Shown here: positions 12,740 to 60,998 of the stretch, piece after piece | Layout: each line of letters opens with the position of its first letter | Numbering within the stretch: the first letter of the stretch is position 1 | Notes under the pieces: generated by a model | Seen by the model: the letters and a program-made list of their open reading frames with translations, nothing else | The model's database searches: none | Told to the model about the DNA's origin: nothing | Program-made: the position numbers and the translations under genes | Source of the DNA: Spirochaetia bacterium | Lineage (GTDB): Bacteria > Spirochaetota > Spirochaetia > CADAEX01 | Direction of reading: 5' to 3' | Length of the DNA stretch: 64,000 bases | Assembly (NCBI GenBank): GCA_017649605.1 | Contig: JAGCGL010000049.1 | Coordinates: 11,402-75,401 of the forward strand

Positions 12740-12767
12740 TGAAGCAAAATGAATTTTTTTTGAGTAT
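12740..12767 (+). promoter_or_regulatory. Putative alternative-sigma (ECF-like) promoter, copy 1
   Basis: TGAAGC-AAAATGAATTTTTTTT-GAGTAT upstream of the Rpn gene; the same motif recurs at 33777-33804 and 60971-60998. Confidence 0.6.
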
Positions 12768-12798
12768 GTACATGTAGTTCAATTTTAGGAGGACTACT

Positions 12799-13782
12799 AT
12801 GAAAGAAAAAATTTTCATACCAAAAGACAAGAAGCTGCTTGATCCCAAGGTGGACAGCACATTCAAATCCCTCTTCACACATGAAGGGGCCGGGTCAAAG
12901 ATTGCCCTGAAGAGCCTGGTGACCGCAATCATAGGCTATGAGCCAGAGACTGTGGAGGTCATAAACAACGAGCTTCCAAAGGAGCTTATCTATGCCAAGG
13001 ACATACGGCTTGACCTGCAGTGCAAGATGCCGGACGGAAGCAGGATAAATGTGGAGATGCAGACCTGTCTGAGCAATGACAATCTCAAAAACCGCGCGCT
13101 GTACTACGGGTGCAGGATGATGGGCGGAATAGAAATGCAGGGAAAGCCTTACAGCATACTGCCGAAGGTCTACCATGTCATGTTCACCAACTTCGGGCTG
13201 TTCGACAGAAGCGGGGAATACATGAGGAAATTCATTCTTCAGAGCGGCAGCACAGTGCTCTCCGACTGCTTCCAGATCATATTCATCCAGATGCCGTTCC
13301 TAGAGATCAGCAGCACAGATATCAGCAACTTGCTAGATATAGAAAAATGGATTATATTTTTAAGAGACAGTTCAGATAAAGATAAAAGAGACCTCCTTAA
13401 CCGCATTATGGGCAGCAACAAAGGAATAAAGGAGGCAGGAGAGATTCTGATGACCATAAGCGATGATGAAAGAGAATGGGCGATACAGGAGATGAGATAC
13501 AAGGCCGAGGTTGACCGCGAGGCCTTCCGCATTGCTGCTCATGACAAAGGCCTTGCTGAAGGACGTGCCGAGGGCCGGGAAGAAGGACTGGCAGAAGGTC
13601 GCGCTGAAGGGCTCAAAGAGGGATTGGCAGAAGGTCGCGCTGAAGGACTCAAAGAGGGATTGGCAGAAGGCCGGGAAGAGGGACTGGAGGCTGCAGCCAG
13701 AGGAATGAAGGCCGAGGGCATTCCTGCCGAGACAATAATAAAGATCACAGGGCTGAGTGCAGAGCAGGTTGAGGCGCTTTAA
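12799..13782 (+). CDS. Rpn family PD-(D/E)XK nuclease (putative transposase)
   Basis: LLDPKVDSTFKSLF, RLD...INVEMQ, RALYY, EG-repeat tail and C-terminal IIKITGLS; AGGAGG RBS. Confidence 0.92.
   Translation: MKEKIFIPKDKKLLDPKVDSTFKSLFTHEGAGSKIALKSLVTAIIGYEPETVEVINNELPKELIYAKDIRLDLQCKMPDGSRINVEMQTCLSNDNLKNRALYYGCRMMGGIEMQGKPYSILPKVYHVMFTNFGLFDRSGEYMRKFILQSGSTVLSDCFQIIFIQMPFLEISSTDISNLLDIEKWIIFLRDSSDKDKRDLLNRIMGSNKGIKEAGEILMTISDDEREWAIQEMRYKAEVDREAFRIAAHDKGLAEGRAEGREEGLAEGRAEGLKEGLAEGRAEGLKEGLAEGREEGLEAAARGMKAEGIPAETIIKITGLSAEQVEAL
13450..13782 (+). CDS. Putative internally initiated RpnS-like small protein (110 aa)
   Basis: In-frame ATG (MTISDDERE) with GGAGGCAGGAGA ending 7 nt upstream. Confidence 0.55.
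   Translation: MTISDDEREWAIQEMRYKAEVDREAFRIAAHDKGLAEGRAEGREEGLAEGRAEGLKEGLAEGRAEGLKEGLAEGREEGLEAAARGMKAEGIPAETIIKITGLSAEQVEAL
13549..13686 (+). repeat. Coding tandem repeat (12-bp subunits, 36-bp higher-order unit) in the Rpn tail
   Basis: TGGCAGAAGGTCGCGCTGAAGG(G/A)CTCAAAGAGGGAT at 13589 and 13625, partial at 13661; encodes EGLA/EGRA/EGLK units. Confidence 0.9.
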
Positions 13783-13811
13783 CTTGCAGGAAGCCTGGCA
13801 ATAGCATCAAC

Positions 13812-13833
13812 AAAGCCCCGATATCGGGGCTTT
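13812..13833. terminator. Probable bidirectional intrinsic terminator
   Basis: AAAGCCCCG-ATAT-CGGGGCTTT between convergent genes. Confidence 0.75.
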
Positions 13834-13861
13834 ATCAGTAGCTGATATTTTAGATCGTTTG

Positions 13862-14071
13862 TCAGATCAAAAGCATATTCTCTTTCATTGCATCATTTTC
13901 ATCAACAAAGACTGTTTGCATTTTGCCACAACAGATAGTATTTACTTCATAATTTATATCAGGAAAACCAGCACCAGCATAATTAACAAAATCAACTGTT
14001 GCTTCATGAACACATTGTTCTTTATCACAATACCAGAAAATAGTGTCACCAACTCTAAACTTTGCTTTCAT
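13862..14071 (-). CDS. Small hypothetical protein (69 aa, possibly SH3-like beta-barrel)
   Basis: ATGA overlap with the DUF2075 gene; KFRVGD N-terminus and alternating beta-strand pattern. Confidence 0.65.
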   Translation of the reverse strand: MKAKFRVGDTIFWYCDKEQCVHEATVDFVNYAGAGFPDINYEVNTICCGKMQTVFVDENDAMKENMLLI

Positions 14072-16116
14072 ATTATCTCCAAACCAATTTGTTTTAAATA
14101 TTCATAGGTTGGATCATAATAATCTGGTTTTCTTGTTTCGTCTTTATCAGAACCTTCCGGAACAACTATTATCATACCATGGCGAGCCCTAGTTAATAAA
14201 ACACGATATGCATTTAATTGGTACTTTTTCCGTTCTTCTGCCTTAACATACTGCCATTTACTTCCTGTAAATGAATAATTCTGCCAACCACCCTCGGAAT
14301 ATCGGAAATCACCATCCCAAATAACACAAGACCAATCAAGTTCTAGACCTTGAATATCAAACTCAGTTGCAACATCCTCAAGAAAAAGAGATGAACGGAT
14401 ATCATCTTTATCATCCAAGAACCAATGTACTGTATCAGGTTTAAAACGCACATCTATAGCTAATGGTTTAAGTCTATATGCTTGAGAAGAAACTATCATT
14501 CCATAACGTTCCGAACCTCTAGCTTTTTGCCGTAACCAATCTTTAGCCTTTTCAAGTGAACGTGTTAGGATAATTGGATATGCAGTTTTTATTTCTCTAT
14601 ATAGTTCCTTAGTTTTTTGAATATTCAAATCCAAAAGCTCATGAACAAAGCTTGAAACCTTTTCAGACCGGAATGAACGCATTGAAACAGCAAGATGTAA
14701 AGCTGGGTTTTCAATGACATTCTTATTATTTGACAATAACTGTTTTACTTTTCCTTCTGCATATTCTTTTTCTGTAAGCTGATTTGAAATATATATTTTC
14801 CAATTGTTGAATTTTTCGTTAAGAGAACGAATCCATTCTGAAATACCAGCTTCCCCTGTATTAATCTCTTGTCCACCTCCGACAAGGCAGATAATTACTG
14901 CCCAGTCTGGTCTCTGGTCCAACGACCATATAAGAAACTCAGGTTCGGAATAAGGGAAATTATTAATATGTTTTTTTCTTTTCAGCCAACTAGATAATTG
15001 TTCTTGAGTCCACGCCCTTTGAGCCTCATCAAAAATGGCAACATGCTCTACTTCGGCATATCCATCGCCTTCGTGTTTCTTAATTTTTGTTTTATCTATT
15101 TCTATTGAATCATTAATGATTGGGATTTTAATTTTCTCAAGAAATGTATTCCGGTAATGGTGAACAATCTGAATAAAAGAATGTACTTCACGTCTTGCTT
15201 GTGTAATTGGATATTTCTCATTCTTTTTCTGTTCTTCTTGTTGTTTTTTATCTCTTGCCAAAGCTTCTGTAAGTACACTTACAAGTGGAAAGTTTCCAGA
15301 AAGATAAACAGCTAAATCCTTTTTTTCTGTCCGCTCTATTGCAACCTTCAATCCAACCAATGTCTTTCCAGCACCTGGAACACCAGTAACAAAGCAAATT
15401 GCTTTTTCATTATTTTGTTTCGTTTTTTCAATTATATCTAAAATATAATTATTACTTTTTATTAGATTTTCTGCTGAAGCCTCTGTTCTAGTAATATCTG
15501 CAACATTTTGGTTATTGAATAATGCACTTGCAGCTTGGATAATTGTAGGGGTTGGAGAATACCTGCTATTCGCCCAATCTAAAAGATTATCATGACAGTC
15601 TTTTTTATTTTTTTCTAATATTATTTTAATAATTGAGCTGAGACTATCTTTATTTGAACAAATCGGCTCATAAACATTATCATCATACTGACATTGTACA
15701 TACTTATATGAACGCTCATTAGCCTCTGTTGCAATTAAAATTGGGACAATTATTTTATCATGACTAGCTTCATGAAAATTCTTCAGATCCAAAGCATAAT
15801 CCCAGACTTGCTCACTATCACTAATCAAATATGCTTTTTCACCAACTTTAAATTCTAGAACAAATATTATTCCATGAAAAACTAAAACAACATCAGCTCT
15901 TTTCCCTAATCGGGGAATTGAATATTCAAAAGCAATACGGCCTTCTGCAAAATTTTTAACAACATCTTTCATTATTGCTATTTCATCAAGCCAAGCTTCT
16001 ATTTGTAGAGAATTTGAATCAAATGAATTATCTTTAACAATTATACCTAAAATTTCATTCTCTGATTGCGAAAGAAATTTAGAAAAAGAGTCTTCGTAAT
16101 AATATCGTTCCAACAT
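14068..16116 (-). CDS. DUF2075 family nuclease-helicase (Nhi/Schlafen-group-3-like)
   Basis: N-terminal RADVV...VLEFK nuclease-like motif, GVPGAGKT Walker A, IFDEAQR, EFDIQGLELD, NAYRVLLTRAR; visibly AT-rich. Confidence 0.88.
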   Translation of the reverse strand: MLERYYYEDSFSKFLSQSENEILGIIVKDNSFDSNSLQIEAWLDEIAIMKDVVKNFAEGRIAFEYSIPRLGKRADVVLVFHGIIFVLEFKVGEKAYLISDSEQVWDYALDLKNFHEASHDKIIVPILIATEANERSYKYVQCQYDDNVYEPICSNKDSLSSIIKIILEKNKKDCHDNLLDWANSRYSPTPTIIQAASALFNNQNVADITRTEASAENLIKSNNYILDIIEKTKQNNEKAICFVTGVPGAGKTLVGLKVAIERTEKKDLAVYLSGNFPLVSVLTEALARDKKQQEEQKKNEKYPITQARREVHSFIQIVHHYRNTFLEKIKIPIINDSIEIDKTKIKKHEGDGYAEVEHVAIFDEAQRAWTQEQLSSWLKRKKHINNFPYSEPEFLIWSLDQRPDWAVIICLVGGGQEINTGEAGISEWIRSLNEKFNNWKIYISNQLTEKEYAEGKVKQLLSNNKNVIENPALHLAVSMRSFRSEKVSSFVHELLDLNIQKTKELYREIKTAYPIILTRSLEKAKDWLRQKARGSERYGMIVSSQAYRLKPLAIDVRFKPDTVHWFLDDKDDIRSSLFLEDVATEFDIQGLELDWSCVIWDGDFRYSEGGWQNYSFTGSKWQYVKAEERKKYQLNAYRVLLTRARHGMIIVVPEGSDKDETRKPDYYDPTYEYLKQIGLEII

Positions 16117-16174
16117 GGTAATATTTTATTCCATTAATTGAAAAAAAACTACTAAAAAATTATACTTCTCCCAT

Positions 16175-16561
16175 ATGAAGACCATCCATGTTGTAGCAGC
16201 CATCATTATCCGGGACCACAAGGTATTTGCCACACAGCGGGGCTACGGCGAATTCAAGGACGGCTGGGAGTTCCCCGGCGGCAAGGTGGAACCAGGCGAG
16301 GCTCCTCAGGATGCACTCAAGAGGGAGATCCGAGAGGAACTGGCCACCGAGATAGAGGTAGGCAACTACATCGACACAATAGAGCACGACTACCCTGCCT
16401 TCCATCTCTCTATGGAATGCTACGCCTGCTCTGTAGTCTCCGGCAAGCTTGAGCTGCTGGAACACGAAAACGCTATCTGGCTGTCAAAAGAAACCCTGCG
16501 TACTGTCTCATGGCTCCCGGCTGATATATCTATACTAGATAAGATAGAAAGATTACTTTGA
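16175..16561 (+). CDS. Nudix (d)NTP pyrophosphohydrolase, MutT/NudG-like
   Basis: WEFPGGKVEPGE.....LKREIREE Nudix box and WLPAD. Confidence 0.93.
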   Translation: MKTIHVVAAIIIRDHKVFATQRGYGEFKDGWEFPGGKVEPGEAPQDALKREIREELATEIEVGNYIDTIEHDYPAFHLSMECYACSVVSGKLELLEHENAIWLSKETLRTVSWLPADISILDKIERLL

Positions 16562-16720
16562 ATTATTGTACCTTTCGTCAAATATCTCGTCCCGATAATC
16601 TTTAGTAATCCAATCTTTTGCACCTGGTTTAAGCTTTAAATCCAGGGGTTCCCAGTCAGTAAATGAATCCTTTTTATCCTGCTGTTCTTTTATATTGTTG
16701 TCTTCAGTTGTTTTGTCCAT
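16553..16720 (-). CDS. 55-aa small protein missing from the ORF track
   Basis: AAGGGAG RBS, then ATG: MDKTTEDNNIKEQQDKKDSFTDWEPLDLKLKPGAKDWITKDYRDEIFDERYNNSK; starts 15 nt after the DUF2971 stop. Confidence 0.55.
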   Translation of the reverse strand: MDKTTEDNNIKEQQDKKDSFTDWEPLDLKLKPGAKDWITKDYRDEIFDERYNNSK

Positions 16721-16735
16721 TTTTTCTCCCTTTCA

Positions 16736-17608
16736 CTAATAATTAAAAATAATTGGCTCTTTAATCAATTTATATTCATCATAATCCGGTTTAACTCTAT
16801 AAAAATTTACTGTTTTATTTTGTGTCTTCAGTATTTCATAAATGATACGAGCTTTATCTGCGTCAACATTATATCCAAAAATTATCTCTGCAAGAGTATC
16901 ATATGGATAGAAAATTTTCGTTTCAAATAAATCGTCAGTTTTTATTAAAGGATTATCAACACAAATTGCCCGATATTCATTTTCTGATTCCCAGCACTTC
17001 TTTTTGTGAACCAAATAGTATGAAAGAATTTCATTCTGCTTTTTCAAATCACCGAAAGGTGATATTTTAAATCTGCCTTCATTATCATACATTATTTTTT
17101 TAAAGGGGATGTAGTCATCACAGTATCTAGAACTACAATTTTTCATATTAATTGAATTCTGAGAATATTTTATAAAATGTACTTTTGGTATCCCATTTTC
17201 TTCCACACAGTTATATCCAATACATATACCAGTATAAGCCCCACCATATAACCCCCACATCTGTTCATTAAGACAATCTGAAGTTAGGCTTAGTATATGA
17301 TTACTATTTGAAAACATTTCAATCAATTGATTTTTTTTAGAAGAATTTTCTGCTAAAAAAACTTTCAATTCTTCAATGTTTGAAAACTGTCCTTTTGGAT
17401 TTGTAATTTTATTATCTATAAATGCTTTATATTCTTCATCTGATGCTTTAAAATCAATTTTCATTCTACAATCAAAAGGATCATTAAGTTCAGATGGGCG
17501 AGAAAAATATAGATAATTATTTTCCAAAGAGTCTAATGTGTATTCAAAGCATTTAGAATCCGAAATATTTCTATATTTATAAAGAATCATCAAAGCTTCT
17601 TTAATCAC
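16736..17608 (-). CDS. DUF2971 domain protein
   Basis: LYKYR, YFSRPSELNDPFD, SLT...MWGLYG...GICIGY, K...WESENEYR and EIIFG motifs; AT-rich; start is GTG 17608 or ATG 17590. Confidence 0.85.
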   Translation of the reverse strand: MIKEALMILYKYRNISDSKCFEYTLDSLENNYLYFSRPSELNDPFDCRMKIDFKASDEEYKAFIDNKITNPKGQFSNIEELKVFLAENSSKKNQLIEMFSNSNHILSLTSDCLNEQMWGLYGGAYTGICIGYNCVEENGIPKVHFIKYSQNSINMKNCSSRYCDDYIPFKKIMYDNEGRFKISPFGDLKKQNEILSYYLVHKKKCWESENEYRAICVDNPLIKTDDLFETKIFYPYDTLAEIIFGYNVDADKARIIYEILKTQNKTVNFYRVKPDYDEYKLIKEPIIFNY

Positions 17609-18402
17609 CGTACCAGATATTCATCGAACCTATCCAAAACTTCAAGCATATCGGGCAAAAGGTAGTCGCGGCACTCGGCCATCAGCTCCTTCGGCATACC
17701 GTAGAAAGCCTCGGCAATACCTCCGGTGATGCAGGCCTGGGTGTCGGCATCGCCTCCCAATGACACAGCAAGCCGTATGGCATCCTCGTAGTCCTTGCTG
17801 TCCAGGAACGCCACTATCGCCTCGGGCACTGTCCCCTGGCAGGTCTCGTCAAAATCGTAATCGGGCCTTATCTGGTCGCAGGTGCGCTCCAAGTCGTAGT
17901 CAAACTCCTTCTGGATGTACTCCTTTATCTCCTGCTTGCTCTTTCCTGTGCGGGCCAGGAAGATGGCTGCTGCTGTGGCATCGGCTCCATCTATTCCGAA
18001 GGGATGGTTGTGGGTAACCTAGGCAGTCCACCGGGCCACCTTGCGGGTAGTCTCCAGAGTGTCGTAGAGCCATCCTGCTGCAGACACCCTCATGGCAGAT
18101 CCGTTGCCATAGCTTCCATAGGGCTCGGTCATATCAGAGAAAAGCCACTGGCGGAACTGGCCGCCGTAGCCTGCGAACGGGTACTTTGCACCCCACTTCT
18201 TGAAGCTTTTTATAAGGGCCTGCTTCACAGCCTTCTCCTCAGGATCCTTGCCCGCCTTTAAAAGCACATCTGCCACCGCTAATGTCATGACCGAGTCGTC
18301 GGTGAACATGGAATCGTCGCTGAGAAGCGGGAAATCTGTTGTGTCAATTGGGTTAAACTCATAGAGCGACCCTACTATGTCGCCTAAAATTGCTCCGTAC
18401 AT
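17605..18402 (-). pseudogene. ADP-ribosylglycohydrolase (DraG/ARH family) with one in-frame TAG at 18019-18021
   Basis: GAILGDIVGS, TDDS and GNGSAMRV, then WTA*VTHNHPFG continuing in the same frame to GGDADT; 266 codons in total. Confidence 0.85.
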
Positions 18403-18516
18403 TTATACTCCTTTTTAAATAATATAATATTTGGGGTGTCTCAAATAATGCTACAGATGAAAAAATAACAACATTTTTATAGACAATTTTTATATGCAGG
18501 AATAATATGAGGTTAT

Positions 18517-19812: not shown

Positions 19813-19813
19813 G

Positions 19814-20203
19814 ATGAAGGCACAGAGATATTCAAAGCAGCGCGAGCTGGTGCTGCGGACAGTGAAAGATCATCTTACTCACCCTACCGCCCTGGAGATC
19901 TACGGTCTTACCCGGGAGAAGGATCCCACCATAAGCATGGGGACTGTATACCGGAACCTGAACCTTCTGGCCGAGCAGGGAAAGATACTCCGCATAAAGG
20001 TGCCCGGGGCGGCCGACCGGTACGACGGCATTATAGAGCCCCACAACCACGCTGTGTGCACAAAATGCGGCATGGTGATGGATTATAATTATAGCTTCGA
20101 TGACTTGAGCAGTCAGCTGGAGAAGAGCGGGTTCAAGTGCGAGGAGCTGAATATCACTGTGCGCGGAACATGTAAAAACTGCCTGACAAAGGCTGATGAA
20201 TAA
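19814..20203 (+). CDS. Fur-family regulator, PerR-like
   Basis: [16 protein letters not shown].VCxxCG and CxxC motifs; adjacent to rubrerythrin. Confidence 0.9.
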
Positions 20204-20220
20204 ATATATGGAGGAAGGAA

Positions 20221-20787: not shown

Positions 20788-20806
20788 TCTGCCGCTTTAT
20801 TCACGC

Positions 20807-25908: not shown

Positions 25909-25980
25909 CATCTCCTACAGGAATCGAACCTGTGTTGACGGGATGAAAACCCGTTGTCCTAACCCCTAGACGAAGGAGAC
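25909..25980 (-). tRNA. tRNA-Glu(TTC)
   Basis: GTCTCCT/AGGAGAT acceptor stem, ACGGG-TT-TTC-AT-CCCGT anticodon arm, GGTTCGATT T-loop; CCA not encoded. Confidence 0.95.
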
Positions 25981-25986
25981 GCGTCT

Positions 25987-26059
25987 TGAGCTGCAATGGA
26001 TTCGAACCATTGACCCACGCCTTAAAAGGGCGTTGCTCTACCAGCTGAGCTAGCAGCCC
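25987..26059 (-). tRNA. tRNA-Lys(TTT)
   Basis: GGGCTGC acceptor, TAGCTCAGCTGGTAGAGC D-arm, ACGCC-CT-TTT-AA-GGCGT, GGTTCGAATCC; TTGACA-17-TAGATT promoter upstream. Confidence 0.95.
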
Positions 26060-26130
26060 AAAACAATAAATGCAACGACAAAAATCTATCAAGAATGAGC
26101 GATAATGTCAACTATTGCATTTGTTTAAAA

Positions 26131-26216
26131 TGCCGGAGGCGGAACTCGAATCCGCAAGGCTTTTAAGGGCCGGGGGATTTTAAGTCCCCTGTGTCTACCA
26201 ATTTCACCACTCCGGC
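26131..26216 (-). tRNA. tRNA-Leu(TAA)
   Basis: GCCGGAG/CTCCGGC acceptor stem, GGGGA-CT-TAA-AA-TCCCC, long variable arm; TTGACG-17-TAAAAT promoter upstream. Confidence 0.95.
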
Positions 26217-30938: not shown

Positions 30939-31814
30939 ATGAATCTGACCATCTTTGTCCTGACACTCATATCCGGCATACTTAATGCGACCTGGAACTT
31001 CTTCTCCAAGAAGAAAGCTGGAGATTATTCTGTCATGGTTACAGGATTAGCATTATCACATCTGACAATACTGCCCGTCACCCTTGTACTGATCTCCATC
31101 GAAGGTCTGGATATACATGCCGTTCCGGTCATACTGCTGTCAGGGTTCTTCGCCGGGCTGAACACGCTGCTGCTGGTCTTTATGTATGAAAGCTCTGATA
31201 TCTCCATGGCCTACCCTGTGACCAGAGGAACAGGGGTCATGTTCATTGCCATACTGAGTTCCATCTTCCTGGGCGAGCAGATATCACGCCTGGCAATAGT
31301 GGGCATTTCCCTTGTACTTCTGGGAGTTTTCCTGTTTGCGCTTACCAGGGGGAGAAAGCTTTCTGACATATGGGAGAGCATAAAGAGGCAGAAGATAGCC
31401 TTTTTCACGGGTCTTTCCATGGTAGGCTACAACCTGGTGGACCGGGTCGCAGTACAGAGTGTCAATCCCCTGTTCCTCTACAATTTACGGGGAATTGTCG
31501 CCATGAGTTTTGCCATCGGCTTTCTTATGCTGAAGCGGGGTTATACCTTAAGCCATATGAGGGACACCTTTAGGCACGAATGGAAATATTCCTGCATTAT
31601 CGGCTACGGCGGCTTCATCGGCTATGCCATAATACTGATGATCTACTACCTGTTTGCCGAGGCAAAGGCCAGCTACATAACCCCTATTCGGGAAACTTCC
31701 ATAGTGATTGGCGCAATCCTGGGATTCCTGTTCTTAAAGGAGAAGGCCACCCTGAACAAGCTTGCCGGAATCCTTGCCATTGTGCTGGGCGTAATCCTTA
31801 TCAAAGTTGGTTAA
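30939..31814 (+). CDS. EamA/DMT family transporter
   Basis: About 10 TM segments; SMAYPVTRG, LGEQ, RETS and FLKE motifs. Confidence 0.88.
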   Translation: MNLTIFVLTLISGILNATWNFFSKKKAGDYSVMVTGLALSHLTILPVTLVLISIEGLDIHAVPVILLSGFFAGLNTLLLVFMYESSDISMAYPVTRGTGVMFIAILSSIFLGEQISRLAIVGISLVLLGVFLFALTRGRKLSDIWESIKRQKIAFFTGLSMVGYNLVDRVAVQSVNPLFLYNLRGIVAMSFAIGFLMLKRGYTLSHMRDTFRHEWKYSCIIGYGGFIGYAIILMIYYLFAEAKASYITPIRETSIVIGAILGFLFLKEKATLNKLAGILAIVLGVILIKVG

Positions 31815-33757
31815 CTGTTGTACCCCATCTCTCTTGCTCTTGCATCTACCATAGCCTGTGCTTTGGTCATGTCATTGGCTTGTACTGCATCGAGGTATTC
31901 GGTGTCGGTCTGGGAGCTTATGTCGTTTTCAGGGTTGACAATTTCGTCAGATTCTGTATCGAACTTATCGAATGAAGCACCAGAGCCATGATAGGCACTC
32001 TGGAACAGAAGATTGGTGTGGCTGTCGGTTGAATTATTCTGGTTGACAATCTCAACATCTTTTGCTAAACTAATTATAAGCCCTGCAATCGGGGATTGTC
32101 TCTCACCATCGGTGAAGGCATCCAGTTGCCCTGTGGGGCTTATTTCTTTGTAAGGTGTAACATCTACAGCTTCAACAGTATATATTCTTGACCCATCTTT
32201 TTTATACTCAATTACAGTAAGCATTACAGGAACATATTTATCGTTTGTTGGGTCAAGCATCAAAGAGCCAAGTCTATGAACTTGCACTACTTCTTTTCTG
32301 TTATGAGTATCTGGATGTACAACTTCCCTATATGCTTTCTTAAACAAGAAGTCAACATTAGCAACTGCAAGAGCATGAAGCCGAGAGGAAATTGACTTTT
32401 TGGTAGCCTTTTCGCCACCCATTTTATCAAGCCCCTTTCCTGTAATCCTTGCAGTAATACCTAAAATATCATTTGTAATATCCGTATTAAAGTCTGGTGA
32501 TTTCTTAACTTCCTTAATAGCTTCTGAAACCGAATTAGCAGTACGCTGTGATTTTTTATCTTCCTCAATGTTATGCTCGGTCTGGAACAGTATGCTCGGA
32601 TTATCAGAGAATGTGCCTACATTGTCAGTAGCTGATTTGATTTGGTTAGGAGAGAAGGCTATGTAGTGATTTGATTTAATCCCTGTATCGGTAACATTGT
32701 TAAGGATAGTTCCGTCAAAGCCCTCTTTCTTTGCTTTAGTAGCCTCTAAATAAGTGAAGTTGGTCTTTCTGCCTTTGTTTATGGACTTGCCCTCGTTCTC
32801 GCCTACACCATTCCCAAACCAGTCATAGCCATCCATGTCAAAGGTTTTTGGATTTCTGATATTCAAGAATGTTCCCAGAACTCTTGCAGTTTCGGTATTC
32901 CTATTATTGGCAATCTGTTCTGAAAGTGCTTGGTCATCTGTGAACATGAACATTCCGCTTGACCTTGATGTATCAAAAGTATCAAAGTCTGCGTTTGTTC
33001 CATGATATACAACTAACGGCTCGCCAGTGTCTGGGTCGATTACTTTTGACACCTCATCGGGGTTGACAGATAAAACATCATCGAGTATCTTTAAATAAAG
33101 GGCAATGCCTCCGTGTGGCTTACTATCTTCGGGTAGATGGGCAGCGGTTTGAAGGGTATTGCTCTTAATTTTTATTTCGTCTTCAACAAAAACTTCATGA
33201 ACATAAAGCCTGTTTTTGTTGACATCTTGTATCGCCCTGCAAAAGACCAGATTGCGTTTTCCATCATATTCGATAGGATATGCAAAATAATGATTGATTT
33301 GTTCTTTCCCACTAAAATCTTTTTCGCTTGATAGATAAACAGCATTCTCAAAATCATCTTGTAAAGATGGCAAAATATCTAATTTCTTTTGCCCGTAACC
33401 ATGAGCAAGTGTATCTTTAACGCTTCTTAAATCAATTATTATATTTCCGACAGTTGTTTTATAAGTTTTAGGTTTTGGGAATAATCTTTCGGCGGACTTC
33501 TGTACCGTTAACCCATCTACCTTCTTAAAAGCCCCTTTAGATATAATTTTAACCTTTGTCTGTTCAAGTTTCTGCTTCTGCCATGCTCTTACCCAGTCTC
33601 CAAACCACTTGATAAAGTTAGGTGTCCGCACCTGCACCCACTGTCTCTCGGTGAGTTTGGTCGGTTTTCCGTTGGGGGATTTCAGCCACTGGTCTGTGCC
33701 TTTGTACTTTGACTCTATTTCCTTATATTGGCGGTCGGCTTCTTCGACATCAATCAT
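31811..33757 (-). CDS. Phage-type polyvalent protein fragment: ART-PolyVal-like domain plus two LPD3/BECR-like domains
   Basis: PNGKPTKL.ERQW.QVRTPNF..WFGDW, GEPLVVYHGT, FLNIRNP, GFDG and PNQIKSATDN motifs; GGAGG RBS before ATG 33757; lower GC than the EamA flank. Confidence 0.75.
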   Translation of the reverse strand: MIDVEEADRQYKEIESKYKGTDQWLKSPNGKPTKLTERQWVQVRTPNFIKWFGDWVRAWQKQKLEQTKVKIISKGAFKKVDGLTVQKSAERLFPKPKTYKTTVGNIIIDLRSVKDTLAHGYGQKKLDILPSLQDDFENAVYLSSEKDFSGKEQINHYFAYPIEYDGKRNLVFCRAIQDVNKNRLYVHEVFVEDEIKIKSNTLQTAAHLPEDSKPHGGIALYLKILDDVLSVNPDEVSKVIDPDTGEPLVVYHGTNADFDTFDTSRSSGMFMFTDDQALSEQIANNRNTETARVLGTFLNIRNPKTFDMDGYDWFGNGVGENEGKSINKGRKTNFTYLEATKAKKEGFDGTILNNVTDTGIKSNHYIAFSPNQIKSATDNVGTFSDNPSILFQTEHNIEEDKKSQRTANSVSEAIKEVKKSPDFNTDITNDILGITARITGKGLDKMGGEKATKKSISSRLHALAVANVDFLFKKAYREVVHPDTHNRKEVVQVHRLGSLMLDPTNDKYVPVMLTVIEYKKDGSRIYTVEAVDVTPYKEISPTGQLDAFTDGERQSPIAGLIISLAKDVEIVNQNNSTDSHTNLLFQSAYHGSGASFDKFDTESDEIVNPENDISSQTDTEYLDAVQANDMTKAQAMVDARAREMGYNS

Positions 33758-33776
33758 GCATGCCTCCACCTTGTAT

Positions 33777-33804
33777 AAACACAAAAAAATTTCATTTTGC
33801 TTCA
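33777..33804 (-). promoter_or_regulatory. Putative alternative-sigma (ECF-like) promoter, copy 2
   Basis: TGAAGC-AAAATGAAATTTTTTT-GTGTTT upstream of the polyvalent gene RBS. Confidence 0.6.
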
Positions 33805-33863
33805 TTTCCTGGAAATAATTATTTTTATCAAAGCTGGCTTATTGATAACCTGAACTAATAAAT

Positions 33864-50784: not shown

Positions 50785-50789
50785 GTGAG

Positions 50790-54098: not shown

Positions 54099-54149
54099 TT
54101 TTCTCTCCTAATTATGTGAAAATGTATCACAATATCTCTATTTATTCAA

Positions 54150-55118: not shown

Positions 55119-55129
55119 TCTTACTCCTG

Positions 55130-57376
55130 TCAGAAGAGGCTCTTGAGCCCTTTCTTCATCTCCTTCTGCATATCCTTTGATGCCTTATCAAGCTCTTTCT
55201 GTATATTCTGGGTCTGCTTGTCCACCTCTTTCTGTGCCTCTTTCTTTACAGCGTTAATCTGTTTTTCTGCTTCTTTCTTGAGCATCTTCTCAACTTCTTT
55301 CTGCAGCTTCTTCTGCTGGTTGTCCAGGTCTGCCACAAAGCCCTTGAGATCGCTTACATTGGTGAATACCACAGTCTTCATGCCTGTATACTTCTGAACC
55401 TGCTCCGAGAACTCGGTGGAAATCTTCTCAAGCTTGCTGTTGACCTCTTTCTCAAGCTTATTCTTGAGGCTGGTTATCTCCTGGTTCATGACAGTCTTAA
55501 GGCCTCTTGCAATCTGTCTGTCCACATCGGTCCTGAGGTCGAAGTCCAGCTTGTCCTCCTTGGAGTATGCGAAGTCGATGCCGAAGTCAACCTCGCTGAT
55601 TGTGGCCAGGACACGGGCATACAGGTCGTAGATGAAGTCCGGCTTGAAAGAGGAAGCTGTAATTGCAGCCGGATCTATCATAAGGTATGCCGATGTGCCG
55701 AATTTTTCGCTCTTATCGTAGAAGATATTTGCCTTTACCACAGCTTTTCCATCTATGACAGGCACTCCTTTAAGCTTTTTGGTGTTAGGCACCTGCAGTT
55801 TGATAGGATAGGTTTTTCCTACAAAGTTCACATCCACCATGTTCCCCTTTGGGTTGGTTCTGAAATCACCCAGGAAGTCCAGGGACTCGGTGTAGCCATC
55901 CCTGATAAGGTTTATATCGCCGGTGATAGGCTTATCCAGAAGGTCAGCATTATTACAGATGTTGAACACAGTCCCCTCGAGGGAGAATTTCTTGTCTGGC
56001 GAGTTGCCTCCCAGCTGTATCTCCCGGAGCAGGAAAGATGGCAGGTCTTTACGATAGGTGACATCGCGCCCCTTAAGGCGTACCACCAGTTTCTTCTGTT
56101 TTTTCTGTTTTTCAGGCAGCTTAGGCAGTGTCTTACCAGATGACTGGAAATCCTTGGCCATATCTATGCCGTCCTTGATATATGGATACCACTTGCCAAG
56201 AAGTGTGGCGAAGAAGGTGTCGAAACAGCTGGAGATAAAACGCTTGCCATCATCAATGTTAGGAACCTTGATAGATTTTATCCTGTTCTGGATATAGTCA
56301 GAGTCGTGCTTTACAGAGCTCTGGAACTTGTCAGCAAGTCCCTGCACCGCCTTGGTGTCCCGGACAAAGTGGTCAGATATCTCCTCGGCCCGCTTCTCCA
56401 TATCCTCGGCCTTTTTCTTGGTCGCGTTCACCTGTGTGATAAGATCCTGCAGCTCCTGAGGAGTATCGATCTTGCTCAGATCCATCTTGGTATATTTTTT
56501 TACCTCTTTGCCGAACTCCTTGATATCATTCTTGGTGGTATCAATCTCATCCTGCCAATTCTTGTAGATAGTGGTCATGTCAGATACAATCTCGTCCTTC
56601 ATGGCCGGAGTCTGCAGAGCATTCAGAGACTCCTCCAAGAATGTCTCGGGATCGTAGAAGCCCAGAATATCGGTTATCTCCTCCTGAGTCTGAGCAGCCA
56701 AGGCATCCAGAAGCTCCTGCTTCTTTTTCTCGAATGCCTCGTCCCGCTCCTTCTGCTTTTTCACTTTGGCCTTCAGCACCGCTTCGGGCAGGGCTCCAGA
56801 TGTCTTGCGGGGAGTGCCATAGGTTATGCCTGTGCACTGGGCCAGGTCCATGACAAATTTCCTTTTTAGAAGCTCGGTCAGGTTAAAGTCCACAGAGATG
56901 TTGCCTATCTCGAAGAGGTTTTCCATAGGCTTATCCTTGTTGGCCACAGCCACGCCGCGGATAGTGAGGCTTGAGTCGAATATCTTAAGGTTCACATAGT
57001 CTATGTCTGCCTTAGCCCAGAATATGTTCTCAAGGGCATACTGAAGTCCTCGCTTAACCAGTGGGTTCTTGTAGATGTTCACCAGTGTCACCATGGAGAC
57101 AATAAGGATTATGAGGGCAGCCAGCCAGATGATGTGGATACGCCCCTTCTGGCTCTTGATCTGAGCAGCCATATCCTTGAGCCGTTTAACCTCGTCCTTG
57201 TCAAAGGTGCGGTCTCCTGGAATCTGAAGAACCTTGTCATCCTGCTTGAAAAGCCCCTCTACATATTCCCGGTCGTCATCGATGTAGATGCGGGAAAGGA
57301 GCTTGCGCTTAAGGCTATTGGGGTTATATTTCTTTCTGAAGATTTTAGGAAGCTTGTCCCGGTTGAATTCAGCCAC
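55130..57376 (-). CDS. TIGR03545 family protein
   Basis: One TM, PMENLFE, GTPRKTSGAL and R..GRDV motifs, coiled coils; paired with TIGR03546. Confidence 0.8.
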   Translation of the reverse strand: MAEFNRDKLPKIFRKKYNPNSLKRKLLSRIYIDDDREYVEGLFKQDDKVLQIPGDRTFDKDEVKRLKDMAAQIKSQKGRIHIIWLAALIILIVSMVTLVNIYKNPLVKRGLQYALENIFWAKADIDYVNLKIFDSSLTIRGVAVANKDKPMENLFEIGNISVDFNLTELLKRKFVMDLAQCTGITYGTPRKTSGALPEAVLKAKVKKQKERDEAFEKKKQELLDALAAQTQEEITDILGFYDPETFLEESLNALQTPAMKDEIVSDMTTIYKNWQDEIDTTKNDIKEFGKEVKKYTKMDLSKIDTPQELQDLITQVNATKKKAEDMEKRAEEISDHFVRDTKAVQGLADKFQSSVKHDSDYIQNRIKSIKVPNIDDGKRFISSCFDTFFATLLGKWYPYIKDGIDMAKDFQSSGKTLPKLPEKQKKQKKLVVRLKGRDVTYRKDLPSFLLREIQLGGNSPDKKFSLEGTVFNICNNADLLDKPITGDINLIRDGYTESLDFLGDFRTNPKGNMVDVNFVGKTYPIKLQVPNTKKLKGVPVIDGKAVVKANIFYDKSEKFGTSAYLMIDPAAITASSFKPDFIYDLYARVLATISEVDFGIDFAYSKEDKLDFDLRTDVDRQIARGLKTVMNQEITSLKNKLEKEVNSKLEKISTEFSEQVQKYTGMKTVVFTNVSDLKGFVADLDNQQKKLQKEVEKMLKKEAEKQINAVKKEAQKEVDKQTQNIQKELDKASKDMQKEMKKGLKSLF

Positions 57377-57887
57377 GGTTCACCTCCCCTATCTTAAGAA
57401 GCAGTTTGATGAAAGGCACTTTCATAAGGAACTGATATGCCTTGCTGCGGACAAAGTATTGGTACAGGGTGTTCCGCCATACCCGAATAAAGATGCGGGC
57501 CAGTATGTAGAACGGAATGTATAGGATGATTCCCCAGGCAAGTCCGCCCATGACCACCGAGTTGTTGAACCTGGTGAATGCCACGAATGGGGTGTCGAGC
57601 CAGACTGCAAAGGTGGGGGTCAGGGCCGGATGGGTCAGGATTGCATAGCCGGTTGAGTCGAAGAGAGGGTCTGCCAGCGGGATGAAGATAGAACCCAGGA
57701 TAATGCTGAGGAACAGAGTACTCCGGTTGATCCTGAAGAAGAATGTCACTATAAAAAGAAAAATCCACAATAGGTTCCCTTTTGGAACGAAAGCCAGGAG
57801 CATACCGAGAGCAAAGGCATGGGCCAGCTCGCCGGGAGCCCGGTTTGCGTTCAGGGATTTGAACATGGCTTGAAAATAGTTTACCAC
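57369..57887 (-). CDS. TIGR03546 family membrane protein
   Basis: LNAN.APGELA and TRFNNSVVMG motifs. Confidence 0.82.
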   Translation of the reverse strand: MVNYFQAMFKSLNANRAPGELAHAFALGMLLAFVPKGNLLWIFLFIVTFFFRINRSTLFLSIILGSIFIPLADPLFDSTGYAILTHPALTPTFAVWLDTPFVAFTRFNNSVVMGGLAWGIILYIPFYILARIFIRVWRNTLYQYFVRSKAYQFLMKVPFIKLLLKIGEVNRG

Positions 57888-57971
57888 CTGCGCTGCCTCC
57901 TAATATATTTATAATATATCAGGTTTGGCAGTAAAGCAATAAGTAATAATCCTGCCAGTCAGCGACATTCT

Positions 57972-58898
57972 TTACGGGTTGTCTATCGACCAGCCTGCAG
58001 GTACCTTGGAAACATTAAAATCTCCTGCTACTCCTGGAGCTGTCACCAGGGCCGCAGGACAGGTGAATATACCAGAAGGTTTAACTCCATCAACCCAATT
58101 GCTGGTTGCAAATAAACCAGCAGGCCAACTTGTAAAAGGAACTGTTATAAAGCTGAGCTTTGAACAGCCATTGAACATCCTTTCATAACAAAAATTAGGT
58201 AAAGTGGTTGCCGGTAATTCTGGGGCTCTTGTCAACTCGGTACACTTATAGAACATCCTTTCATAACACTTTTCTGTCAAGGTTTCTGCAGGCAATTCCG
58301 GGGCTAATGTCAAACCGGTGCATAAATTGAACATAGAAGCATAACACCTTAATGCCAAAGTTGTGGCAGGAAGTTCCGGAGGAGATGTAAGGATGGCACA
58401 ATTATTGAATAGTCCCAAGAAGCATTCAGGACATGGAATTGCTGTTGTGGCGCAGTCCTTGTCCACCAGACTCATGACATTGCCGCTGGCTGCTATAGTG
58501 CCGCCTGTCATGACAAATTTTATCGTCCGGTAATTAGCTCCTGTACCATCACCATCTGAGAAAGCAGGATTAGTTGTTTTTGCCCGTATGTACATCTTTT
58601 CTCCGCTTGCCAAGGAGACTGTGGTATCGTCAATAACAAAATCAGTCCAGGTTGTGCCGCCATCCTTTGAGTATTCTACTGTTGGTACAGGAGTAGATAC
58701 TGTTCCGTTATAACTCACAGTTGTAGAAACTGTCGAAGCTGCCGAAGCAGTAAAACAAAGCCATGGTGCATTTGCTACGCCACCACCGCCAGCGCCGCCA
58801 CCGCCAGCGCCGCCACCGGCAGGCTCTTCATCGCTTCCACCACCACACAGTACGAAGACTAACCACAAAAACCTGACAAATAACAAAGAATAAGCCAA
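57972..58898 (-). CDS. Surface protein with ~24-aa ELPATTL..CY..MF repeats (BspA/LRR-like); start uncertain
   Basis: Three ELPAxTL repeats, ASGNVMSL, Gly linker after a hydrophobic stretch ending in Cys; only TTG starts (58898 or 58886). Confidence 0.7.
   Translation of the reverse strand: MAYSLLFVRFLWLVFVLCGGGSDEEPAGGGAGGGGAGGGGVANAPWLCFTASAASTVSTTVSYNGTVSTPVPTVEYSKDGGTTWTDFVIDDTTVSLASGEKMYIRAKTTNPAFSDGDGTGANYRTIKFVMTGGTIAASGNVMSLVDKDCATTAIPCPECFLGLFNNCAILTSPPELPATTLALRCYASMFNLCTGLTLAPELPAETLTEKCYERMFYKCTELTRAPELPATTLPNFCYERMFNGCSKLSFITVPFTSWPAGLFATSNWVDGVKPSGIFTCPAALVTAPGVAGDFNVSKVPAGWSIDNP
58779..58820 (-). repeat. 15-bp coding tandem repeat (GGGAG linker)
   Basis: Minus strand GGTGGCGGCGCTGGC twice plus a partial third unit. 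Confidence 0.8.
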
Positions 58899-59090
58899 GC
58901 AGAACCACTATGTCATAAGACAAGGCACAGAAAATAGGTGCCGCGATATTGCGGGCTGCCGGTAAAAGCATGTCACCTACACCCAAAAGAAACGAATGAG
59001 GTGACTTTGCTTGTCGGCAGAATCGCACCTAATCGAGGTACCTATTTATCTGTGCCTTAAATAATGTTTTGTTCTGCTGTGGCTTATTCT
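58887..59090. ncRNA. ~204-nt rod-like hairpin, candidate structured RNA (6S-like) or palindromic element
   Basis: Nested complementary arms traced by eye with one large internal bubble; details in findings. Confidence 0.45.
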
Positions 59091-60907
59091 ACTGTAACAC
59101 TCTTGGCCAGGTTCTTGGGCTGATCCACATCGCGGCCCAGCTCCAGCGCGGAGTAGTAAGCCAGAAGCTGCAGAGGAATACTCATCAGGAACGGGTAGAT
59201 GTACTCCACAGTTTTCGGAACCTCAATAACATCATCAGCAATACCGTACACATCTTTATCTCCTTCTGCTGCCACTGCTATAATCTTGCCGCCACGGGAC
59301 TTAACTTCCTTCATATTGGATATGATCTTGTCGTGGAGCCGGTCGTCGGTGACCAGGAACAATGACGGTGTCTTCTCGTTTATAAGGGCTATCGGGCCGT
59401 GCTTTATCTCTGCGGCGCTGAAGCCTTCGGCATGGATATAAGAGATCTCCTTGAGTTTGAGTGCCCCTTCCATAGCCACTGGATAGTTGATTCCGCGGCC
59501 AAGGAACAGGAAGCTTTCGGTATGACAGTACTTTTTGGCAATAGCCTCAATCTTAGGTGCTGACTTGAATATAGTCTTAAGTTTCTCAGGCACAGCCTCC
59601 ATCTCATCTATGAACTCAAGGCCATCCTCGAAGGACATGTTCCTGAGCCGGGCCATGATAAGTGTGAATATGTACATTGCTGTCATCTGGGAGGTGAATG
59701 CCTTGGTGGATGCAACTGCAATCTCCGGACCTGAGTGGATGTAGACACCGCCGTCCGATTCCCGCGCTATTGTGGATCCTACCACGTTGCAGATTCCTAG
59801 GACTCTTGCACCCTTTCTCTGGAGCTCCCTCATGGCATAGAGGGTATCCATGGTCTCGCCAGACTGTGATATTGCGAAGTAAAGTGTATTCTTCTCGATG
59901 ATAGGGTTTCTGTAACGGAGCTCGGATGCGATCTCGGCATGGGCCGGGATTCCTGCCATGCTCTCTAAAAGGTATGCGGCGACAAGACCTGCGTGATACG
60001 AGGTTCCCGCAGCAATTATCACAACCCGCTCCACCTTGAGGAGCTCTTCTGTGGTCATGTTGAGGCCACCCAGGTGTCCTGTTGCATGGGTTCTGTCCAG
60101 CCTTCCCTTCATTCCCCGGACTATAGACTCGCTCTGCTCGTAGATCTCCTTGAGCATATAGTGGTCGTAGCCTGCCTTCTCGAAGGATTCTGCCTGCCAC
60201 TCTATTATGTCGATATCCTTGTTTATGATATTCTCGTCCAGATCCATGGTCTGGAAGCTCTCTGGGGTCACAGTGACAATCTCGCCATCCTGAAGATAGA
60301 TGACCTGCTTGGTGTAGCTGATGATAGCTGATGCATCGGAAGCCAGGAACATCTCGCCGTCCCCTACTCCCATGATAAGAGGAGAACCGTTCCGGGCTCC
60401 CACCATCATATCGGGATGATCCTGGTGCATTACAACCAGTCCGTAGGTTCCCTTGAGAAGGCTTACAGTCTCAAGGACTGCCTTGGTCAAGTCTCCCTTG
60501 TAGCACTGCTCGATAAGATGTGCTATAACCTCTGTATCTGTATCTGATTTGAGAGAATGCCCCTTGTCCTTGAGGAGCTCCCTGAGCTTCTCGTAGTTCT
60601 CGATGATTCCATTGTGGACAATGGCGATTTTGCCGCTGCAGTCTGTGTGCGGATGGGCATTGGACTCTGTAACTCCGCCGTGGGTTGCCCACCGGGTGTG
60701 GCCTATTCCGTTGTGGCCGAATGGCCTTGGCGGCACTATTGCCAGCAGGTTCTTGAGCTTTCCAGTCGATTTGATGATTTTAAAGCCTTCGGGTGAATCT
60801 ACACAGATTCCTGCCGAGTCGTAACCCCGGTATTCAAGACGCTTAAGCCCTTCCAGAAGGACTTCTGATGATGGTTTTTTCCCGACATATCCGATAATTC
60901 CGCACAT
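59084..60907 (-). CDS. glmS: Glutamine--fructose-6-phosphate transaminase
   Basis: MCGIIG start at 60907; LEYRGYDSAG, GHTRWATHG, SQSGET and PKNLAKSVTVE motifs. Confidence 0.98.
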   Translation of the reverse strand: MCGIIGYVGKKPSSEVLLEGLKRLEYRGYDSAGICVDSPEGFKIIKSTGKLKNLLAIVPPRPFGHNGIGHTRWATHGGVTESNAHPHTDCSGKIAIVHNGIIENYEKLRELLKDKGHSLKSDTDTEVIAHLIEQCYKGDLTKAVLETVSLLKGTYGLVVMHQDHPDMMVGARNGSPLIMGVGDGEMFLASDASAIISYTKQVIYLQDGEIVTVTPESFQTMDLDENIINKDIDIIEWQAESFEKAGYDHYMLKEIYEQSESIVRGMKGRLDRTHATGHLGGLNMTTEELLKVERVVIIAAGTSYHAGLVAAYLLESMAGIPAHAEIASELRYRNPIIEKNTLYFAISQSGETMDTLYAMRELQRKGARVLGICNVVGSTIARESDGGVYIHSGPEIAVASTKAFTSQMTAMYIFTLIMARLRNMSFEDGLEFIDEMEAVPEKLKTIFKSAPKIEAIAKKYCHTESFLFLGRGINYPVAMEGALKLKEISYIHAEGFSAAEIKHGPIALINEKTPSLFLVTDDRLHDKIISNMKEVKSRGGKIIAVAAEGDKDVYGIADDVIEVPKTVEYIYPFLMSIPLQLLAYYSALELGRDVDQPKNLAKSVTVE

Positions 60908-60970
60908 ATGCACGCTCCCAGTATATTTCTTACTTATTTTATCGGCAAAATAAAAAATTTTTTTAAAAAT

Positions 60971-60998
60971 TGAAGCAAAAATGATTTTTTTTGTGTTT
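60971..60998 (+). promoter_or_regulatory. Putative alternative-sigma (ECF-like) promoter, copy 3
   Basis: TGAAGC-AAAAATGATTTTTTTT-GTGTTT before the AGGAGG of the 61019 gene. Confidence 0.6.

Follow-up and report, generated by a model that had tools for sequence, protein, structure and literature searches.

A short bipartite DNA motif that recurs three times in a 64,000-nt stretch from an uncultured rumen lineage of the Spirochaetia is probably the core of a dedicated promoter, one that would drive a competence-type regulon for DNA uptake and recombination. The stretch ("the window", G000:C68:11402-75401) is part of G000, a 1.79-Mb assembly of 136 contigs with 48% GC, whose RecA is at most 77% identical to any sequence outside its genus. 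It was compared within a set of 20 family genomes, designated by G-numbers; the congeners are metagenome-assembled genomes (MAGs) recovered from the gut of yak, sheep, goat, buffalo and horse, and the four genera of the family are coded (e.g. g1, g4). The number of copies, their orientation and spacing, the genes that they precede and their conservation across the genus, the family and the class can be read directly from these genomes. From such patterns we infer that the element is a promoter, that the genes behind it are co-regulated and that they are linked to transformation. If so, this would be the first competence-type regulon with its own promoter to be described from the phylum, and one with two unusual features, namely a switch of its -35 box in one species and the capture of its promoter by mobile-type genes. 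A full-text literature search found no description of a competence regulon or of the control of natural transformation in spirochaetes.

The three copies in the window, and the genes that they face, are as follows.

12712..12776, + strand: promoter copy 1, with its A/T-tract upstream part at about 12712-12738 (nhmmer E=8.9e-12, C68 24117-24178)
12740-12745 and 12762-12767, + strand: boxes of copy 1 as read in the sequence, TGAAGC and GAGTAT, separated by a 16-nt A/T spacer
12776, + strand: predicted transcription start of copy 1, the A of GTA, placed by register with the leaderless copies
12799..13782, + strand: Rpn-family PD-(D/E)XK nuclease or putative transposase, 327 aa, with an AGGAGG ribosome-binding site (RBS) upstream
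33768..33832, - strand: promoter copy 2, TGAAGC at 33804-33799 and GTGTTT at 33782-33777 (nhmmer E=1.1e-10, C68 45223-45163)
About 33769-33768, - strand: predicted transcription start of copy 2, directly 5' of GGAGG at 33767-33763
31811..33757, - strand: stand-alone protein of the polyvalent type, 648 aa with 33757 as the first base of its ATG (ART-PolyVal, PF18760, E=1.2e-26; LPD3, PF18798, E=6.7e-17)
60943..61007, + strand: promoter copy 3, TGAAGC at 60971-60976 and GTGTTT at 60993-60998 (nhmmer E=3.6e-11, C68 72352-72414)
About 61007, + strand: predicted transcription start of copy 3, at the beginning of AGGAGG
61019..62041, + strand: TP_1001-family lipoprotein, 340 aa, with the lipobox LLSAC in its translation; member of the conserved core of the putative regulon

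An initial annotation of the window had pointed out these three motif strings, and all of them are present with the coordinates, strands and spacing that it gave, each facing its adjacent gene and followed by GGAGG and then an ATG (at 12799 on the + strand, 33757 on the - strand and 61019 on the + strand). When the window was searched with TGAAGCAAAA-N12-GWGTWT, allowing up to two mismatches, three matches were found where 0.17 were expected, a number that none of 100 shuffles reached. The conserved element is longer than the motif as first drawn: upstream of TTGAAGC it extends over phased A/T tracts of about 25 nt, and downstream it takes in a conserved TATAC..GTA. As for the genes, the Rpn assignment of 12799-13782 holds on its profile matches (PF12784, PDDEXK_2, E=2e-35; TIGR01784, 121.9 bits against a cut-off of 52.1), and the description of the second gene as a phage-type polyvalent protein is borne out by its two domain matches. 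The third gene had been called a lamin-tail lipoprotein. The lamin-tail part of that name is not confirmed: no match to the Pfam lamin-tail domain (LTD, PF00932) was found even at E<=5, where a single irrelevant match appeared, and the LTD-bearing clusters proved to be weak feature look-alikes (scores 0.90-0.91). Instead, the protein belongs to the TP_1001_2nd family, which is widespread in spirochaetes, with 315 homologues and a precomputed PF26342 on all of those listed. A search of PDB sequences with a TP_1001-like lipoprotein profile returned matches at chance level only (best E=0.078), and no functional study of TP1001 was found in the literature.

In the G000 genome as a whole, a strict scan identified 23 copies, and a profile built from these 23 seeds gave 30 matches at E<=0.014 (four more, with E of 0.65-6, were discarded). 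Because the end of contig C79 overlaps that of C6, two of the 30 matches are one locus, leaving 29 distinct copies. The genome-wide scan suggested in the initial annotation thus came out in its favour, as 29 of 29 copies are gene-proximal and co-oriented with an open reading frame (ORF) that starts 36-102 nt past the first T of TTGAAGC, the end of a contig truncating the ORF in one case. Of the 30 profile matches, 28 have TGAAGC as their -35 hexamer. We assigned the first genes of 28 copies using Pfam and NCBIfam, and second genes using Pfam; the first genes are these.

DNA uptake or processing (8, by Pfam): ComEC, ComF, ComM/YifB, RadC, SSB, RecA, a RecQ-family helicase and a lipoprotein nuclease
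Rpn-family nucleases (2): TIGR01784 above cut-off
ORF6N proteins (2, by Pfam)
Polyvalent-protein domains (4): ART-PolyVal with LPD3; MuF_C; CdiA_C; a weak LPD3 match below cut-off
Toxin-antitoxin first genes (7): RelE, RelB (twice), HigB, Gp49, a HicB-like protein and DUF4160
Envelope or unknown (5): the TP_1001-family lipoprotein of 340 aa, a TPR lipoprotein, two more lipoproteins (250 and 425 aa) and a secreted protein of 1926 aa

The nuclease of the first group is a secreted lipoprotein of the Exo_endo_phos_3 / ExeM-NucH type. Second genes complete toxin-antitoxin (TA) pairs (YafQ, YoeB and helix-turn-helix (HTH) antitoxins); others encode NrdR, behind the helicase gene, and an OEP outer-membrane protein, behind that of the TPR lipoprotein. 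The initial annotation had proposed a test for the motif before competence and repair genes, and in G000 six of the seven genes comEC, comF, comM, dprA, ssbB, recA and radC carry it, dprA being the one without a copy. The motif-headed ssb is a paralog about 40% identical to the other, housekeeping ssb, which has no motif, and at least two ssb matches were found in every family genome searched except G012, which is 81% complete; the paralog recalls SsbB of Gram-positive competence regulons. We therefore write ssbB for it, and ssbA for the housekeeping gene. The conserved core of the regulon would comprise comM, recA, radC, comF, the SsbB-like paralog and the TP_1001-family lipoprotein, with comEC joining them within the genus, and the accessory genes that would come under the promoter in the genus are Rpn nucleases, toxin-antitoxin pairs, ORF6N proteins and polyvalent-protein domains. 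ComEC of G000 has 447 aa and consists of the Competence domain only, in agreement with a ComEC survey in which this form is dominant in Spirochaetes (PMC6299819).

The element is conserved well beyond G000. While the exact extended pattern is restricted to the genus (5 of 8 congeners, against none of 32 genomes outside it, of which 11 belong to the family and 21 do not), its -35 part is found more widely. A first regular expression demanding GT[TA] was too strict for genus g1, and the heptamer TGAA[GT][CT]A, on the sense strand and within 110 nt of the start, was counted instead, after leaving out seven partial or second comM matches, one radC and two TP_1001 matches at contig ends, and ssbA entries without loci. 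Counted in this way, it lies upstream of comM in 11 of 16 cases, recA in 16 of 19, radC in 13 of 17, comF in 15 of 19, ssbB in 16 of 19 and the TP_1001 gene in 16 of 17, for a total of 87 of 107 upstream regions, compared with 0 of 30 controls (0/11 for ssbA and 0/19 for the gene of an extracytoplasmic function (ECF) sigma factor). The misses fall mainly on G003, where all six genes are affected, on the more distant congeners (G001, G005 and G007) and, for comM, on genus g4. In the other genera the box reads TGAATCA or TGAAGTA and is followed, after 15-17 nt, by (C/T)GTT(T/A)A (alignments by eye), and recA has an additional upstream TTGACC-N17-TAAAAT (again by eye). Outside the family, TGAA[GT]C was found upstream of comM at 14 of 33 loci (3/33 in antisense and 4/33 in intragenic controls) and upstream of TP_1001 homologues at 33 of 70 (3/70 and 3/70 in the controls). 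At this class level CGTAT often follows it, relatives showing TGAA(G/T)C-N16-18-CGTAT; examples are MAGs that carry the label Sediminispirochaeta, Oceanispirochaeta, Marispirochaeta, Rectinema or Treponemataceae.

The copies before comM, recA, radC, comF, ssbB and the TP_1001 gene are syntenic across the four genera, and the promoter of window copy 3 has an orthologue in all of them. In a comparison of promoters, those of one gene in different genomes had an identity of 0.79, those of different genes within a genome 0.65 and unrelated pairs 0.62. As orthologous copies are more alike than copies within a genome, they appear to have been inherited in place, and the same three values rule out concerted evolution or gene conversion of the whole cassette. 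This bears on a very different explanation, which takes the motif for the terminus of a small mobile element, for a repeat that transposition has spread or for no more than a generic strong promoter. Similarity over about 60 nt does exceed what a promoter strictly needs, many of the headed genes are of mobile type (Rpn, TA, polyvalent), and the one canonical copy found among the variant boxes of G003 (below) could have arrived with an accessory gene. Set against this, the similarity ends at the predicted start and about 60 nt upstream, without an inverted partner repeat in the alignment, every copy is gene-proximal and co-oriented, orthologous copies keep their place across genera with the identities just given, and no Rfam family covers the motif sites of the window. 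Nor does a generic promoter fit, since housekeeping tRNA genes and the P1 promoter of recA in other genera use TTGAC-N17-TAAAAT. The explanation by a mobile element or generic promoter is largely refuted, and we regard it as very improbable; the mobile-element end was also the outcome that the initial annotation had named as fatal to its own proposal.

Three side observations concern these loci. In genus g1, comM (L126-L132; cf. G000:C108) lies directly downstream of what appears by eye to be the 3' end of a 5S rRNA, and a putative 5S rRNA gene in this place would account for the contig breaks that most of these assemblies show a few hundred bases before comM. One TP_1001 homologue (G001:C3:13937-14926, L415) has an in-frame TGA, and one SsbB-like gene (G017:C1:1684356-1684736, L259) an in-frame TAG inside the match; both could be pseudogenes or sequencing errors.

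A reading closer to ours takes the same genes as a LexA-independent response to DNA damage or stress, a substitute for SOS, in which comEC, comF, comM and radC would serve repair or the uptake of DNA as a nutrient. Typical SOS cargo is indeed present (recA, ssb, a recQ-family helicase, TA modules and mobile-type genes). No LexA (LexA_DNA_bind) match was found in G000, where the sequence upstream of recA is the TTGAAGC motif and not a palindrome; moreover, dprA lies outside the regulon and genes for a pilus ATPase or ComEA were not found. By contrast, uvr, translesion-polymerase and other excision-repair genes are absent from the 28 first genes, comEC and comF are specific to DNA import, and it is not the housekeeping ssb but its second paralog that the motif heads, a trait shared with the competence regulons of Gram-positive bacteria. 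On balance we consider an SOS substitute rather unlikely. In bacteria without SOS, however, competence can itself be a response to damage, and the two readings are therefore compatible.

Several points weigh against a competence-type regulon. To our knowledge no spirochaete is naturally transformable, and the literature search found no such report, while recA, ssb, recQ and the toxin-antitoxin genes would fit a DNA-damage regulon as well. All competence regulons characterised so far include dprA in their core; here this gene lacks a motif copy and lies just outside the window, behind an xerD-like gene. No match to ComEA (HHH_3, PF12836) or to a T2SSE/PilB ATPase (PF00437) was found in G000, in a search that did not include secretin or pilin families, so that a complete uptake machine is not evident. 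G000 is itself a MAG, 92.7% complete and 6.4% contaminated, and the absence of ComEA, PilB and LexA therefore means only that they were not found. As regards conservation, comM of genus g4 has no box (0/3), comEC sits behind another gene in the other genera and was kept outside the heptamer scoring, and several of the family- and class-level alignments of the -10 part were compared by eye.

The conserved element spans about 60 nt and in the G000 copies has the form tttttcAAAcTTTTTTCTCAAAAA-TTGAAGC-AAAATGAAtTTTTTTT-GnGTnTATAC-agGTA. The T-run within it measures 4-8 nt in strong copies (8 T in 10 copies, 7 T in 7 and 6 T in 6) and is replaced by an A-run in the recA copy, but the distance from the box to GT is constant despite this variation, and the copies keep a common register, give or take about 1 nt. 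No support was found for phase variation by way of the T-tract. In nine copies, those of radC, comEC, comF, the nuclease, the TPR lipoprotein, the MuF_C gene, the LPD3-like gene and two lipoproteins, an ATG or GTG without an RBS lies at +36 to +39; 18 copies have an RBS and two are unclear. The start codon of these apparently leaderless genes coincides with the conserved GTA of the leadered copies (comEC ...TATAGGGGT|ATG, radC ...AAGAAAGGT|ATG), and the radC and comEC orthologues in sister genomes retain the same ATG. Since leaderless mRNAs begin at the A of their start codon, these codons would mark the start of transcription at the A of the conserved GTA, in which case the box would occupy -36 to -31 and the GT, which is invariant, about -12/-11. 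The promoter as we envisage it would consist of phased A/T tracts resembling an UP element, TTGAAGC at about -37 to -31, a fixed A/T-rich spacer of 16 nt and GT at about -12/-11 inside G-N-G-T-W-T-A-T-A, and its transcripts would be leaderless or carry very short leaders that start at or near the Shine-Dalgarno sequence. The radC copy is closely preceded by a terminator-like hairpin that has a T-run. At the HigB and Gp49 modules (G000:C42:5281(-) and G000:C15:11479(-)), a sigma-70-like TTGACA-N17-TATAGT/TATATT was observed between motif and gene, giving apparent tandem promoters.

This layout does not fit sigma-70 geometry, because the spacer between TTGAAG and TATAcA would be 20-22 nt. It resembles that of ECF promoters, as had been proposed: TGAAGC at -36 to -31, a fixed 16-nt spacer and GT at about -12 make a bipartite -35/-10 arrangement, with the predicted start about 6-10 nt past the -10 part. 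The sequence of the boxes departs from that class. The -35 box lacks the AAC core, reading TGAAGC in G000 and TGAATC in other genera, and the -10 part of G000 has an invariant GT without the C of CGT, which appears only in other Spirochaetia (CGTAT). Housekeeping promoters had been described as different, and the one case checked agrees, as the tRNA operon at 25909-26216 (- strand) of the window is preceded by an ordinary sigma-70-type TTGACG-N17-TAAAAT at 26255-26227.

Turning to the factor that reads the box, the sigma-70-family genes of G000 encode RpoD, a 284-aa RpoS-like protein, FliA/WhiG, a 174-aa ECF sigma and a 165-aa ECF sigma, all but the last of which make up the genus's core set; a ComX- or SigH-like sigma was not found among the matches. 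None of the four core proteins fits the evidence, even though the geometry suits an ECF-type sigma, and the reader could be a divergent sigma-like protein or an activator at the -35 position. What had been called an alternative-sigma regulon thus survives as a single promoter class linked to DNA uptake, with a recruited nuclease and polyvalent protein, but not in its assignment to an alternative sigma factor.

The obvious candidate is the core ECF sigma, which is encoded outside the window (G000:C49:14193-14714, 174 aa) with a zinc-finger anti-sigma gene adjoining. Released by stress, it would read TGAAGC-N16-GT and feed back on itself through a comEC-rsmA-cysS-sigma string. It is the only ECF sigma common to the genus and is present in 19 of the 20 family genomes, and the geometry of the motif is ECF-like, recalling the TGAAAC-N16-CGTA of B. 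subtilis SigW promoters. In G000 and G006 its gene is the distal member of that string, on the same strand and 2.4 kb past comEC with short intergenic gaps, so that read-through from the comEC copy is possible in these two genomes. Its own promoter (G000:C49:14159-14195; orthologous loci L187-L191 and L394-L407), which overlaps the end or stop codon of cysS, the gene that it always follows, reads TGTAAC-N16-TGTTT(T/A)-5 nt-ATG in 19 of 19 genomes; it is apparently leaderless and has in common with the motif its -10 part, TGTTT(A), and a spacer of 16 nt. Its -35 box, however, is TGTAAC and not TGAA(G/T)C in all 19, and the heptamer is found upstream of the gene in none of them, contrary to the expectation that the motif would precede an ECF sigma gene and to the autoregulation that this would imply. 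In addition, a scan of G000 for TGTAAC-N15-17-TGTT returned a separate small set of 6 matches, which includes the ECF sigma gene and, as TGTAAC-N17-TGTTCT, the gene of the 284-aa RpoS-like sigma. Region 4.2 of the ECF sigma is invariant in the family, and its T. pallidum counterpart TP0092 is reportedly tied to oxidative-stress genes. We therefore hold this candidate to be doubtful.

The sister species G003, whose ComM and RecA are 92% and 98% identical to those of G000, is informative here. In all orthologous promoters examined, TTGAAGC is replaced in G003 by (G)TCAAATC, TCAAAGC, TTCAAGC or CCCAAGC, so that the box is altered in 6 of 6 orthologous promoters plus that of comEC, with the flanks unchanged. 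G003 carries 12 copies of AAGTCAAATCAAAA and retains one canonical copy. It has no G003-specific substitutions in region 4 of RpoD, the RpoS-like sigma, FliA or the ECF sigma, and keeps TGTAAC before the ECF sigma gene even though the box of the regulon has been rewritten. As judged from these sequences, the regulon-wide change of the -35 box looks like a compensated change of specificity.

A change of this kind speaks for a further possibility, one that is somewhat easier to entertain than the ECF sigma though still tentative: that the box is the site of a dedicated activator overlapping the -35 position, which would recruit RNA polymerase with RpoD or the RpoS-like sigma, much as ComK, or CRP with Sxy, does in other competent bacteria. 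The G003 boxes changed together without any change in sigma region 4, TATA(C/T)A lies at about -11 to -6, and the ancestral box TGAATCA is a 7-bp palindrome. Yet no candidate gene for such an activator was found; a box of 6-7 bp at a fixed distance of 16-17 nt from GT has the pattern of sigma region 4 and is short for a dimeric activator; the 20-22 nt between TTGAAG and TATAcA are too long for a standard sigma-70 promoter; and the CGTAT of other Spirochaetia is an ECF-like -10 part.

Other candidate readers were rejected. Searches of 5 congeners gave no match, at E<=1e-10, to the 165-aa ECF sigma (G000:C63). G002, G003 and G008 have an extra small sigma next to genes for GG-leader peptides, and where the N-terminal parts of the G003 and G008 proteins overlap they do not differ. 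Proteins with only a sigma-like HTH were, by eye, LuxR/NarL-type response regulators beside a sensor-kinase-like ORF. The extra sigma, of 168 aa, was seen at contig ends (G002:C5, L383; G008:C51 and C104, L392 and L514; G003:C62, L513), and the small ORFs beside it end in ...LDEAALEKVAGG and resemble GG-leader (RiPP or bacteriocin) precursors. Separately, the RpoS-like gene (G000:C60, L110 1296-1330, outside the window) has a textbook sigma-54 promoter, TTGGCACGATACTTGCT, overlapping its TGTAAC-N17-TGTTCT, an arrangement that recalls the RpoN-RpoS cascade of Borrelia.

Going beyond a competence-type regulon in this one lineage, it is conceivable, though we would not favour it as a whole, that the Spirochaetia possess an ancient competence programme with its own promoter class (TGAA(G/T)C-N16-CGTAT/GT), read by a factor outside the recognisable sigma-70 family whose changed DNA preference forced the rewriting of the -35 box in one rumen species. 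Uptake would then proceed without type IV pili or ComEA, by way of envelope proteins peculiar to spirochaetes (the TP_1001 lipoprotein, the secreted ExeM/NucH-like nuclease and other lipoproteins), and Rpn, TA and polyvalent genes would have captured the promoter so as to be expressed when foreign DNA enters.

The Rpn gene lies in a defence-island-like neighbourhood (window 11500-17608) that contains the following genes.

11500-11895, - strand: PIN-domain protein
12242-12709, - strand: Vsr mismatch endonuclease
14068-16116, - strand: Schlafen-group-3 helicase protein
16736-17608, - strand: DUF2971 protein

The polyvalent-type gene is a single accessory gene between those of an EamA transporter and a 2-hydroxyacid dehydrogenase, and relatives of its product were found in 4 of the 20 family genomes, G000 included. 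A distant relative in G004 (G004:C106:18188-18931(-)) lies directly upstream of comEC; in both G002 and G004, comEC is preceded by a 261-aa gene whose product is 30% identical to the N-terminal part of the window protein, and at the G002 comEC locus (L151) the motif stands before that gene, which has a leaderless start. The lipoprotein gene is followed, after 69 nt, by a further gene.

62111-63610: Na+/H+ antiporter gene

Elsewhere in G000 (G000:C24:34666-36783), the leaderless TPR lipoprotein gene, the OEP (TolC-like) gene and two ORFs of about 450 aa lie on one strand; we know of no role in DNA uptake for such an envelope operon.

Almost nothing has been charted of natural transformation in spirochaetes or of how it is controlled; the phylum includes major pathogens and is difficult to manipulate genetically. 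A promoter that joins comEC, comF, comM, radC, ssbB and recA would be a concrete handle on the process, as it predicts which conditions and what factor should be sought, and might offer a means to switch on competence in cultured relatives. It also nominates envelope proteins, including the T. pallidum TP_1001 family, for a DNA-uptake route without pili. The change of the -35 box in every promoter examined in G003 would be a rare natural case of co-evolution between a regulon and its reader, and promoter capture by TA, Rpn and polyvalent genes would bear on how mobile elements exploit competence.

Among known systems, the regulons of ComX and SigH share an element common to comEC, comF, ssbB, recA and radC, and accessory and strain-specific genes ride on it, as they appear to do here; the streptococcal competence element is a -10-type box. 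Reports on streptococcal late competence under ComX (sigma X) and on SigH of S. aureus and Lactobacillus sakei likewise describe one short element and a dedicated factor (PMC6560143, PMC3486894, PMC3364868). The spirochaete system differs from these in phylum and sequence, in being bipartite with a -35 box, in lacking dprA and pilus genes, and in its many predicted leaderless transcripts. The CRP-S regulon comprises comM, radC, ssb, comF, rec2/comEC and a toxin-antitoxin pair, and its site is a 22-bp palindrome upstream of a sigma-70 promoter. This Sxy (TfoX) regulon of Pasteurellaceae and relatives (PMC5809987) has a very similar gene set under a specialised site that replaces a normal promoter element. 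The spirochaete element, in contrast, is a bipartite motif of the -35/-10 type.

In its form the element comes closest to ECF promoters. The consensus of B. subtilis SigW, SigX and SigM is TGAAAC or TGTAAC, N16-17 and CGTA, and the spirochaete motif has the same 6-nt -35 box of TG.A type, a spacer of 16-17 nt, GT in the -10 part and a start about 10 nt further on. It differs in that the AAC of the -35 box is replaced by AAGC or AATC, the resident ECF gene being preceded by the AAC-type TGTAAC and not by this box. That gene lies beside cysS, as does TP0092, which we take to be the only ECF sigma of T. pallidum; the TP0092 regulon is said to consist of oxidative-stress genes, whereas DNA-uptake genes are found here. 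TP0092 is described as the sigma factor RpoE, with 22 putative controlled ORFs named from its binding sites (PMC4222731).

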